From the NCBI GenBank assembly GCA_025363655.1, contig JANYDK010000037.1, positions 6,191-70,190 on the forward strand: a DNA stretch of 64,000 bases. Direction: 5' to 3'. The notes beneath the pieces were generated by a model. That model did not search any database. It was not told the DNA's origin and saw only the letters and a program-made list of their open reading frames with translations. Within the stretch, counting starts at the first letter, position 1. Every line of letters begins with the position of its first letter. The translations under genes and the position numbers were made by a program. Shown here in pieces: positions 22,590 through 24,999 of the stretch. This stretch comes from Deltaproteobacteria bacterium (GTDB lineage: Bacteria > Myxococcota_A > Polyangia > Polyangiales > JADJMO01).

Positions 22590-23254
22590 TCGCGTTGTGC
22601 GCTCGCCTGCGCCTCTGCCTCGCGTGCGGCCTCTTTGGCGCGCACCTTGGCTGCGTGCTCGGCGAGGACGCTGCGCTCGATGGCGAGCCGTTCTTCGTCG
22701 ATGCGAATGCGTCGGTAATCGAGCTTCGAAAGCGCGCGCAGTGAGCGCTCGGGCGTCTCGACCTTTCCTTTCGCCGAGATGGGGAGACCGAGCGCGTCGG
22801 CATAGGCGCGGGCCAGCTCTTCGCGGCGGAACTCGTTGGAGAGGGCGATCGATCGCGGGAGATAGCTGCCGATGTCGCGCGCGGGGGTGACGACGATGCG
22901 TCGCGCAGCGTGTGCGAGGGCTGCTTCGATGGAGACGCTGGCGATCGCCTCGCGATGGATCGTCCGCGCACGCTCGCGAACGGCGGCGGCGATTCCCCGT
23001 GCATCTCCGAGGAGCGTGACGAGGAGATCGAGGAGTCCTTCGTCGCCGAGGAGCGACGCCAAGTGCGGGACGATGCGCGCTTCGACGACGACGATGCCGA
23101 GGTCGGCGAGCGTGTCGCGTGTGCGGCTGACGAGGACCTGACGTTCGACGGCGTCTCTCGGCGCTGGTTTGGTCGCGGCGACGCGGGCGAGCGTGGCCAG
23201 CGCCTCGTCGAGCGGAAACGGCGGCTGCGCATCCACGCGCTCATCGTACGTCAT
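22586..23254 (-). CDS. Hypothetical protein with charged coiled-coil C-terminal tail (operon member)
   Basis: ATG 23254 (MTYDERV) overlaps the upstream TGA (ATGA). The rest of the 534-aa ORF upstream is Arg-rich out-of-frame overlap with the VWA gene. Confidence 0.6.
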   Translation of the reverse strand: MTYDERVDAQPPFPLDEALATLARVAATKPAPRDAVERQVLVSRTRDTLADLGIVVVEARIVPHLASLLGDEGLLDLLVTLLGDARGIAAAVRERARTIHREAIASVSIEAALAHAARRIVVTPARDIGSYLPRSIALSNEFRREELARAYADALGLPISAKGKVETPERSLRALSKLDYRRIRIDEERLAIERSVLAEHAAKVRAKEAAREAEAQASAQRE

Positions 23255-24999
23255 CTCGTACGTGATCGCTGCGCCCCTTGCCTGCCCGGCGCCGAAGGCC
23301 GTTCCTTGCGAAAGAGCGCCTCGCCGAGCGAGCGCGCGGCGTTGGCGATTCCGGTCCAGCCGGCGACCGACACCACCTCCATGCCCATGTCGATGAGATG
23401 GTCGGCGCCGCCACCGATGGCGAGGAGACCGGTGAGACCGCCGGCGCGCGCGGCGTCGCCGATCACTCGTGCGACGTCGACCGTCGGCGTCGGGCTCGTC
23501 GCGTTGTAGAGAAAGTCGGAGTCGGAGATGACGATACGTCGTACGCGGGCGATGCGACGAAATCGTGCGACCGAGCTCGCCAGCTCGTCCCAGGGAAAAT
23601 CGGTGCCGCCGCCGATGTACTCGAGGAGCGCGCGCTGCGCCGGCTCGGCCGACTTGGTGAACTCTTTCATCACCACGCGTTGGTCTTGCGACGAATATTG
23701 AATGACGCGCACGCGACCGCCGGCGCGGGTGGCGGCGCGCACGAGGATGAAGCCGGCCTCGATTTGATGGCTGAAATCGAGCTTCGGATCGGGCATCGAG
23801 CCAGACGAGTCGATGTAGAGTTCGATCCAAGGCATCTCGCGATCGCCCACCCGCGGCTCGTCGGCGAAGCGCGTGCGCGTGACGGTGTTGACCGAGGGGA
23901 TGGGCATGCCGCCGGCACGGGTGACCGATCCGATCCAATCGATGGCCTCGAGATCGTCGCCGAGCTCCCACGCCTCGTGCGGCCCCGGCACCACCAGCTC
24001 GCCCGGCTCGAGGGACGCTGGCACCTCGAGCGCGGCGCGTTCCGCTTCTCGTCGATACGTCGCGAGGGCGAGCGCGTCGGGGGGCACGAGGCCTTGCAAC
24101 TTCAGCTTGGCGCGGACGAGCGGGTTCCCACCGGTGGCCTCTTGCGGAGTGGTCGGCACGCGGCCGGTCTCGATCGCTTCGCGCAACCAACGACGCGCCG
24201 CCTCTTCGTCGCTGCGCGGTCGCAGAAGATCGGTGACGTCGTCGCCATCGATGGGGCCATCGCCCATGCCTCCGCGCTCGAAGCCCTCGTCGTTCTCGCC
24301 TTTCCCCTGTTTGCCGTCCTCGACGAGGTATGGGCGCAGCGCGACGAGGAAGCGCGAGAGCTGAAGTGGCCTATTTTCGGGGTGCGCGCGCGAGAACTCT
24401 CCGGCGGCCCGCGCACGCGCGCGATGATCGGGATCGAGCTTCGAGAGGCGAGCCGACGCGTCTTCGGGGACCATCGCGCCGGGGGCGAGGTTCCACAGCT
24501 CTTCGAACATCACGATGTAGAACGCGAACGAGAGGCTCCAACGGTTCTTCCCGAGGGCGCCGAAGATGGCGACGAAGGAGTCTTCGTACTCGTCCGAAAG
24601 CTCGTCGTTGATCAAGAGATCGAAGAAGACGTTGAGCACCCAGTCGAAGTTTCCCGCGGCGATCTTCTCCGGCTTGCCCGCGTCGCCGGCGGTCACCAGC
24701 AAGTCGCAGAGCACCTCGCGATGGAAGCGTCGCATTCGCCGCGCTTCGCCGTTCGTGTGCGGATAGCGGATGTGGTGACCGACCTCGTGGGCGAGCACGC
24801 ACGGCAAATGCTCGGAGACGCCCAGCTCGGCCAAACGCCCGAAATTCACGTGCGTTTGGCGCGTCCACAAATCGATGTAGGCGATGGACCCATCGGCATC
24901 GTCGATGGCCCGCGGCAACGCCAGGTCGATCGCCTCGCTCCAACGATCGAGCGCCGCGCGCCAAAGGCGGGGGAGATCGGCGGGCGGCGCGGTGCTCAC
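23251..24999 (-). CDS. HExxH metallopeptidase-like domain fused to a VWA domain (DUF2201-type architecture)
   Basis: N-terminal VLAHEVGHHIRYPH. C-terminal VWA with MIDAS residues YIDSSGSM, GGGTDF, ISDSDF. Confidence 0.75.
   Translation of the reverse strand: MSTAPPADLPRLWRAALDRWSEAIDLALPRAIDDADGSIAYIDLWTRQTHVNFGRLAELGVSEHLPCVLAHEVGHHIRYPHTNGEARRMRRFHREVLCDLLVTAGDAGKPEKIAAGNFDWVLNVFFDLLINDELSDEYEDSFVAIFGALGKNRWSLSFAFYIVMFEELWNLAPGAMVPEDASARLSKLDPDHRARARAAGEFSRAHPENRPLQLSRFLVALRPYLVEDGKQGKGENDEGFERGGMGDGPIDGDDVTDLLRPRSDEEAARRWLREAIETGRVPTTPQEATGGNPLVRAKLKLQGLVPPDALALATYRREAERAALEVPASLEPGELVVPGPHEAWELGDDLEAIDWIGSVTRAGGMPIPSVNTVTRTRFADEPRVGDREMPWIELYIDSSGSMPDPKLDFSHQIEAGFILVRAATRAGGRVRVIQYSSQDQRVVMKEFTKSAEPAQRALLEYIGGGTDFPWDELASSVARFRRIARVRRIVISDSDFLYNATSPTPTVDVARVIGDAARAGGLTGLLAIGGGADHLIDMGMEVVSVAGWTGIANAARSLGEALFRKERPSAPGRQGAQRSRTR

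Follow-up and report, generated by a model that had tools for sequence, protein, structure and literature searches.

MoxR ATPases with VWA partners are widespread, and to our knowledge clients are known for only a few of them (Rubisco, cNOR, CO dehydrogenase and the chelatases). We know of metallopeptidases fused to such a VWA partner from domain annotation alone. The MoxR ATPase NorQ has NorD as its VWA partner; a finger from the VWA domain of NorD plugs the hexamer, and the MIDAS of NorD, a metal ion-dependent adhesion site, binds the target protein (PMC13036017; PMC9976466). A co-chaperone in which a metallopeptidase is fused to a vWA domain has been recorded beside MoxR in jumbo phages (PMC7824862), and MoxR-vWA systems have been found with attached peptide-processing modules, in which a zincin peptidase is combined with a radical S-adenosylmethionine (SAM) enzyme and a small protein whose C-terminal peptide is conserved (Kaur et al., 2020; PMC7159879). 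Here we describe a two-domain protein, called the zincin-VWA protein below, and the six-gene operon that encodes it on contig JANYDK010000037.1 of a Deltaproteobacteria bacterium of the Myxococcota_A. The window, by which we mean the whole stretch of 64,000 nucleotides that was analysed, has a G+C content of about 67% throughout.

By analogy with NorD, we lean with modest confidence towards reading this protein as the VWA co-factor of a MoxR-like hexamer, through which a client would be handed to a tethered zinc peptidase. Its N-terminal module is a probable zinc-metallopeptidase-like domain, and the whole unit is probably an ATPase-coupled machine for the processing of proteins or peptides.

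Motifs and predicted folds of the zincin-VWA protein

The earlier note on this DNA, made from the letters alone, had placed an HExxH motif in the N-terminal third of the protein and a complete MIDAS set (DSSGS, GGGTDF, SDSDF) in its C-terminal part. Both statements hold. HExxH occurs a single time in the 582 residues, as the HEVGH within VLAHEVGHHIRYPH (residues 68-81, nucleotides 24757-24798), and all three MIDAS strings are present within a modelled VWA fold. An independent gene call on the public contig gave the identical product (coordinates in Table 1). Conservation was counted over 247 family proteins aligned to the family hidden Markov model (HMM), 220 of which cover both motif regions. 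Among these 220, H71, H75 and P80 are invariant, E72 and G74 are each kept in 219 and H76 in 205; the catalytic-type E72 is retained together with both histidines. Further downstream, N123 is conserved in 213 proteins and N131 in 212, position 127 is Asp in 215 and Glu in the other five, and E166 and W169 are kept in 210 and 211, respectively. The MIDAS residues D397, S399, S401 and D493 are each found in 219 proteins and T466 in 202. This near-invariance shows strong purifying selection on both the HExGHH...N-x3-D-x3-N...E site and the MIDAS, and the motifs are not due to chance.

A homologue search returned 103 clusters, nearly all of 540-630 residues and mostly from Myxococcota metagenome-assembled genomes, and none of the 103 carried a precomputed Pfam domain. 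When the word-indexed search was repeated with the profile as query, about 100 proteins came back, in essence those already found. The family HMM matched 1080 of 1.84 billion representatives at E ≤ 1e-3 and 325 at E ≤ 1e-30, while 540 stretches matching the family came up when one genome per species was scanned. Its Myxococcota members include Myxococcus xanthus, Corallococcus, Pyxidicoccus, Polyangiales and Bradymonadia; others come from Planctomycetota, Acidobacteriota, Thiomargarita and Parabeggiatoa, with single cases in Spirochaetota and Propionicimonas. In one relative from low-G+C DNA (P0185, 1114 residues), a complete zincin-VWA protein is preceded by a T4 Rnl1-type RNA ligase domain (PF09511, E 1.1e-37) at the N-terminus; this is a further nucleotidyl-transferring enzyme linked to the family.

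The C-terminal half is modelled as a Rossmann-like, MIDAS-complete VWA fold of the NorD-like kind. The full-length AlphaFold2 model (predicted local distance difference test score, pLDDT, 88.6; predicted template modelling score, pTM, 0.82) matched dozens of PDB entries in Foldseek, all of them VWA domains at probability 1.0. The four best matches were NorD in NorQD complexes (E 8.5e-6 to 1.5e-4, with 9qhe_G at the top), followed by the anthrax toxin receptor, integrin I, vWF A and Rea1 MIDAS domains. The NorD alignments span 264-302 columns, compared with about 200 for generic VWA domains. No Pfam VWA-family profile matched the protein, and VWA_2 or VWA matches were weak and occurred in 12 of the 117 relatives that were scanned individually with Pfam (38 + 79). 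The VWA domain is structurally closest to that of NorD. With NorD, and by extension with the VWA partners in CbbQ/CbbO, RavA/ViaA and CoxD/CoxE, the zincin-VWA protein shares the order of N-terminal domain, linker and VWA domain with a complete MIDAS, and a MoxR-class ATPase in the same operon. By this comparison, the segment directly before the VWA core (residues 330-384) may correspond to the finger with which NorD enters the AAA+ pore. Three differences set the two apart. [quoted passage not shown]

Minimal zincins consist of a backing helix, a three-strand sheet and an active-site helix, in that order. The model of residues 1-328 (pLDDT 89.5, pTM 0.89) begins with a helix (9-20), continues with strands (30-31, 40-43, 48-51) and the HExxH helix (62-77), and ends in about 250 residues of helices. 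The HExxH helix is present in both models, at a pLDDT of 96-98. The predicted order of secondary structure fits a zincin core and is that of M48 (Ste24/HtpX) and SprT-type zincins. In Foldseek, SprT-type zincins gave local, sub-threshold matches to the N-terminal domain (72-83 columns, root-mean-square deviation 3.2-4.8), and the M48-like structure 3c37 appeared in the PDB search at E 5.6. Searches of PDB sequences with phmmer and with the profile in hmmsearch returned noise plus Ste24p and MJ1213 at E of about 1. Peptidase_M48 recurred weakly in 16 of the 117 relatives, mostly below its cut-off, and the weak profile matches span about 60 residues upstream of HExxH plus the motif itself. In contrast to the M48 and SprT families, whose matches to our family are all sub-threshold, the zincin-VWA proteins have the additional helical bundle of about 250 residues, and their candidate third metal ligand is an Asp in N-x3-D-x3-N instead of the family-typical Glu or His. 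N123, D127 and N131 are spaced i, i+4 and i+8 and would therefore lie on one face of a helix, which suggests D127 as the third ligand; E166 may be an alternative ligand or a second-shell residue. No profile search assigned the N-terminal domain to a non-peptidase family.

The earlier note had likened the N-terminal segment to the domain that accompanies VWA-like DUF2201 proteins (PF13203 + PF09967). The comparison with the Pfam models was negative: PF13203 had no match in the zincin-VWA protein at E ≤ 10 nor in 116 of the 117 relatives (none of 38 and one of 79), and PF09967 had none in the protein or in any of the 117. The single positive, P0123, scored 28.3 bits against the PF13203 cut-off of 23.2 and is a genuine family member, with 42% identity to our protein over residues 20-134. 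For profile-profile comparison we took gp36 of Delftia phage RG-2014 as a reference (PF13203 2.2e-38, PF09967 3.2e-21) and aligned 28 homologues, in which H89, E90, H93, N111, D115, I118 and N119 are invariant. In every profile-profile run, hhalign paired HExxH and N-x3-D-x2-IN with the corresponding DUF2201 motifs. The N-terminal domains aligned at a probability of 5-39% (E 3e-4 to 7e-3) and the C-terminal domains at 53-70% (E 4e-5 to 1.4e-4), the latter of which may reflect generic VWA similarity; crossed controls of N-terminal against C-terminal domains gave E of 0.2-0.5, and the E-values of cognate domains were about 1000-fold better. An hhalign run of the family against one single DUF2201 sequence was uninformative, and a DUF2201 HMM that we built from N4-like phage proteins gave no significant matches in either direction. 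Even so, the HExxH...N-x3-D-x2-IN signature common to the two points to a remote relationship of the DUF2201 kind.

In our reading of these sequence comparisons, the zincin-VWA protein would be either distantly related or closely analogous to the DUF2201 architecture, while being a non-member by Pfam criteria. The two have the same domain order, with an HExxH domain followed by a VWA domain with DxSGS...GGT...D, an identical N-x3-D-x2-IN after HExxH, and a MoxR-clade AAA+ protein encoded nearby. Our protein differs in being about 180 residues longer with a much larger helical N-terminal domain, in having a long AAA_3-type ATPase as partner instead of a short AAA_5-type one, and in the orphan gene that lies between the two. 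Its family is also cellular, with no member among the viral sequences scanned, and it comes with small-protein and ligase or radical-SAM modules.

A non-catalytic HExxH, kept for helix packing or left as a prophage relic of the DUF2201 virion-assembly proteins of phages, is in our view very improbable. This explanation could draw on the want of a significant zincin fold match and on the frequent occurrence of DUF2201 proteins in phages of the N4-like and jumbo types (PMC7824862 for jumbo phages). It is difficult to reconcile with a full site that is near-invariant across at least six phyla, and the neighbouring genes are cellular. Moreover, no relatives turned up when 50,697 phage records were searched by tblastn and 2.9 million viral contigs were scanned with a family pattern, and a phage origin was therefore rejected.

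Operon organisation and the conserved core

The zincin-VWA gene is the third of six minus-strand genes that are translationally coupled, with overlaps of 4-8 nt or a gap of 7 nt (Table 1). The first encodes the MoxR-like AAA+ ATPase, which matches PF07726 (AAA_3) at E 2.7e-7 and 30.9 bits (cut-off 27) and AAA_lid_2 weakly; among PDB sequences it is matched best by the MoxR structure 2r44, and its orthologues in loci L002, L006, L090 and L091 carry strong AAA_3 marks. The second is an orphan with the motifs WNLGE, F-P-G...AP.VVCV.DR and a C-terminal DSQRLW-type motif. It has no match in Pfam, NCBIfam, PADLOC or PHROG, and a PDB profile search with its alignment returned nothing. The zincin-VWA gene is followed by two genes for small proteins, SM1 and SM2, and by a gene for a PaaK-like adenylate-forming ligase. 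SM1 has no Pfam match. SM2 is its paralogue (hhalign probability 88%, E 3e-6 over 151 columns) and is found only in the close clade of the window (L010, L011, L013 and L014). The ligase matches PF00501 weakly and the DVU_1553-family ligase model NF045666 at 2.8e-13, far below the cut-off of that model, and resembles the phenylacetate-CoA ligase 9s3l in the PDB (E 3.4e-5). A promoter scan of the operon found no promoter-like site, and the terminator-like sites were all intragenic and weak.

Table 1. Genes of the operon, and domains and motifs of the zincin-VWA protein, with positions in the window
Feature	Position (nt)	Strand	Remarks
MoxR-like AAA+ ATPase, 517 residues, first operon gene	25953..27506	minus	PF07726; Walker A GGPGKGKT and Walker B IVDE by eye
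Orphan, 317 residues, second operon gene	25007..25960	minus	overlaps the ATPase stop by 8 nt
Zincin-VWA protein, two-domain, 582 residues	23251..24999	minus	GTG start; from the list of open reading frames
N-terminal domain, residues 1-328	24016..24999	minus	AlphaFold2 model
HEVGH, residues 71-75	24775..24789	minus	predicted zinc ligands H71 and H75, predicted catalytic base E72
NVFFDLLIN, residues 123-131	24607..24633	minus	N-x3-D-x3-N; D127 candidate third metal ligand
E166, in (Y/F)EELW motif	24502..24504	minus	possible alternative third ligand or second-shell residue
Pre-VWA segment, residues 330-384	23848..24012	minus	strands 335-343 and 373-379, helix 355-362; conserved W344 and D354
VWA domain, residues 385-565	23305..23847	minus	Foldseek
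MIDAS DxSxS (DSSGS), residues 397-401	23797..23811	minus	D397, S399, S401
GGGTDF, residues 463-468	23596..23613	minus	
MIDAS Thr T466, in GGGTDF	23602..23604	minus	
SDSDF, residues 492-496	23512..23526	minus	
MIDAS Asp D493, in SDSDF	23521..23523	minus	
SM1, small helical protein, 222 residues	22586..23254	minus	ATG overlaps the TGA of the zincin-VWA gene (ATGA); same gene in the public call
SM2, 209 residues	21960..22589	minus	SM1 paralogue lacking the RE tail; C-terminus ...TLPEP
PaaK-like adenylate-forming ligase, 449 residues, last operon gene	20614..21963	minus	TSGSTG P-loop by eye

We then counted these genes in about 80 species-level loci with our own procedure of open reading frames and HMMs; the counts are lower bounds and rest on crude calling of open reading frames in high-G+C DNA, and the orphan HMM was applied only with a positional filter because it picked up some off-frame reading frames. 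An AAA+ homologue lies upstream of the zincin-VWA gene in 66 of 77 loci, the orphan abuts it in 66 of 78, and a small protein is encoded downstream in 61 of 81, while the ligase is present in 36 of 73. The series of AAA_3 ATPase, orphan and zincin-VWA protein was also seen in ten other loci for which gene calls with Pfam marks were available. Together these three genes form the core that is conserved across Myxococcota, Planctomycetota, Acidobacteriota and the giant sulfur bacteria. The statement that the protein is encoded next to a MoxR ATPase was right as to the operon and the type of ATPase, and needs the amendment that the orphan intervenes. A physical partnership of the orphan with the zincin-VWA protein is supported by a natural in-frame fusion of the two in a metagenomic protein of 927 residues (P0154), residues 15-303 of which are 35% identical to the orphan of L003 (E 1e-33); this fusion was missed by the orphan HMM and confirmed by BLASTP.

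Several genes surround the operon in the window. A 323-residue protein with a signal-like N-terminus and no Pfam match is encoded convergently (19646-20617, plus strand), its end overlapping the 3' end of the ligase gene by 4 nt. Divergent from the operon is a Sel1-repeat protein (27815-28711, plus strand; PF08238 1.5e-28) with an N-terminal lysine-rich KKPVAKK tract that resembles histone H1 tails. It is followed by a 191-residue protein without a Pfam match (28761-29336, plus strand), whose N-terminus is signal-like and which contains a long (PSPA)n repeat and a GC-hydrophobic-RRRR tail; by eye, this tail looks like a MYXO-CTERM sorting signal, which fits an origin in the Myxococcota. Finally, the plus strand at 17061-19610 carries a row of genes, convergent with the operon, for SCO1/SenC, DUF420 and a UbiA-family prenyltransferase that is possibly a heme O synthase; they look like a cytochrome oxidase assembly cluster. 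A link of the operon to these three genes was rejected, the adjacency being absent in the other annotated loci (L001-L008, L090 and L091).

The oxidase-assembly genes bear on the explanation that the operon encodes a non-proteolytic maturation chaperone, in which the AAA+ and VWA proteins would remodel an enzyme for insertion of a metal or cofactor, as in NorQ/NorD, CoxD/CoxE and the chelatases, and the HExxH domain would merely hold a metal or serve as a target-specific stator. Besides these neighbours, it could appeal to NorD as the best structural match with the same layout of N-terminal domain, linker and VWA domain (PMC9976466), and to the service of most characterised MoxR-VWA pairs in cofactor insertion (PMC13036017). 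We nevertheless consider it unlikely. The catalytic-type Glu72 is kept in 219 of 220 sequences alongside the two histidines, no metalloenzyme gene is conserved beside the system in other loci, with the SCO1 cluster missing from the annotated ones, and the partners that are conserved are a small protein and either a ligase or a radical-SAM enzyme.

Small protein tails and their accessory enzymes

At its extreme C-terminus the small protein hardly varies, and two types of tail occur there, "...RE" and "...RGKW". The first (ARGWRE, ASAQRE) occurs in 44 loci and includes SM1 of the window, which ends in ...ASAQRE; among its unique tails, the final Glu is present in 29 of 29 and the Arg before it in 28 of 29. 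The second occurs in 26 loci, where the unique tails have R(-4) and K(-2) in 24 of 24, G(-3) in 22 and W(-1) in 19. The accessory enzymes follow the tail. A PaaK-like ligase accompanies the RE tail in 40 of 44 loci and lies directly downstream in 37, whereas it is found in none of the 26 RGKW loci; these have instead a 245-residue orphan (X245, 24 loci), a short radical-SAM protein encoded on the same strand (23 loci) and a 300-residue orphan (X300, 21 loci). These are raw counts of loci, without phylogenetic correction. The combination of RE tail and ligase is found in Myxococcota, Planctomycetota and Acidobacteriota, and in some Planctomycetota the RGKW module, small protein included, lies upstream of the ATPase.

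To judge from the sequence searches, the accessory proteins of the RGKW module fall outside curated families. The radical-SAM protein is short (287 residues) and gave only generic, sub-threshold NCBIfam matches, and the NCBIfam models for the precursors, HExxH proteins and radical SAM/SPASM maturases of FxSxx-COOH-type peptide-processing systems had no specific match in the zincin-VWA protein, in small-protein orthologues (L001, L090), in X245 or in X300. Separately from this module, many Myxococcaceae loci (L001 at 13951-16092; L026, L029, L040 and others) carry a different, low-scoring radical-SAM gene, which lies about 5.1-5.7 kb downstream of the zincin-VWA gene and is encoded on the opposite strand. 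In L001 this gene is adjoined by an Asn-synthase-like gene, and L008 also has radical-SAM and Asn-synthase genes.

The co-encoded small protein is the most likely client of the zincin-VWA protein, although we make this assignment only tentatively. According to the earlier note, no substrate was known for the architecture; the tailed small protein now offers a concrete candidate.

A possible mechanism and its relation to MoxR-vWA systems

We infer docking, the MIDAS ligand, catalysis and the substrate in the following scheme, for which NorD is the guide. One copy of the zincin-VWA protein would dock on the AAA+ hexamer via its VWA domain, as NorD does, and the residues that precede the VWA core may extend into the AAA+ pore. 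The MIDAS metal would capture an acidic residue or the C-terminal carboxylate of the client, ATP hydrolysis would remodel the client or the linker, and the tethered peptidase domain would then cut the client. The ...RE tail of the small protein may be handled by the PaaK-like ligase, a role that the radical-SAM module would take in the ...RGKW variant.

A number of observations weigh against ATPase-gated proteolysis of this kind. The best Foldseek matches of the N-terminal domain, at E 0.47 in the PDB and E 0.21 in BFVD, were not significant, the zincin-VWA protein had no match in Pfam (even at E ≤ 10), NCBIfam, PADLOC or PHROGs, and the hhalign probability against the DUF2201 N-terminal domain was low. 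The small protein, at about 200 residues with a conserved helical core, is unlike typical peptide precursors, which diverge rapidly. The co-variation of tail and enzyme may also partly reflect two clades and not many independent events.

The tails allow a more specific proposal, which is speculative and on balance improbable: a pathway for the modification and processing of protein tails, in which the terminal Glu of the RE tail would be activated by the PaaK-like enzyme, or Gly-Lys-Trp altered by the radical-SAM enzyme, followed by MIDAS capture, remodelling by MoxR and cutting or release by the zincin. Were this true, the system would amount to tagging akin to Pup or ubiquitin or to the release of a signal akin to ribosomally synthesised and post-translationally modified peptides, and it would be specific to Myxococcota, Planctomycetota, Acidobacteriota and giant sulfur bacteria.

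The ternary systems of Kaur et al. (PMC7159879) are also close to the operon. Both consist of a MoxR ATPase, a vWA protein and a conserved third protein, both include a zincin-like peptidase with a small protein of conserved C-terminus (and, in one variant here, a radical-SAM enzyme), and both show a phyletic bias towards bacteria with complex lifestyles. They differ in that our third component is another orphan family, without matches to VMAP, iSTAND, FtsH or beta-propeller profiles in Pfam, NCBIfam and the PDB, and in that the peptidase and the vWA domain form one fused protein. Our small protein has about 200 residues with a conserved helical core, and it ends in ...RE or ...RGKW, as against FxSxx, RxD or acidic tails in the published systems. 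A PaaK-like ligase takes the place of the radical-SAM enzyme in the variant of the window, and STAND or TIR effectors are absent here.

This likeness invites the view of the operon as a MoxR-vWA ternary system for conflict or defence, with the peptidase as effector or activator, the small protein as precursor of a toxin or signal, and the ATPase/VWA pair setting the threshold. Such a role would be compatible with ATPase-coupled processing. The three-component layout, the bias to Myxococcota, Planctomycetota and filamentous sulfur bacteria and the modules of zincin, small protein and radical-SAM enzyme all recall the published systems (PMC7159879), and some loci have neighbours of conflict type, namely CHAT and AAA_5 in L091 and AAA_15/21 in L001. 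We still regard a defence role as distinctly unlikely, since the five operon proteins other than SM1 had no PADLOC match, no NCBIfam match of VMAP or iSTAND type was found, most members lack a variable effector domain fused to the VWA protein, and the core sequences are well conserved and not diversifying. As a separate observation, the minus strand of L091 at 1-5942, beside the operon of that locus, encodes a second, different MoxR-like ATPase of AAA_5 type together with unannotated proteins of 626 and 554 residues and the CHAT (caspase-like) protein, which may be another MoxR-centred system.

Full-text literature searches found no description of this operon system. The idea of a metallopeptidase joined to a VWA domain is not new in kind, because it is recorded in the Pfam DUF2201 pair and in jumbo phages (PMC7824862). 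What is new is a cellular family of several hundred clusters beyond the current models of Pfam and NCBIfam, its association with a different ATPase subtype and a conserved orphan third component, and a small protein with an invariant tail that is matched to a PaaK-like ligase or a radical-SAM module.

The zincin-VWA family is tractable because its operon supplies both a candidate client and an enzyme matched to the tail of that client, and the system occurs in cultivable, genetically tractable species of Myxococcus and Corallococcus. If the peptidase proves not to be gated by the ATPase, several hundred hypothetical proteins would still gain a clean annotation. If it does prove to be ATPase-gated, proteolytic processing would join the known activities of MoxR-VWA systems.

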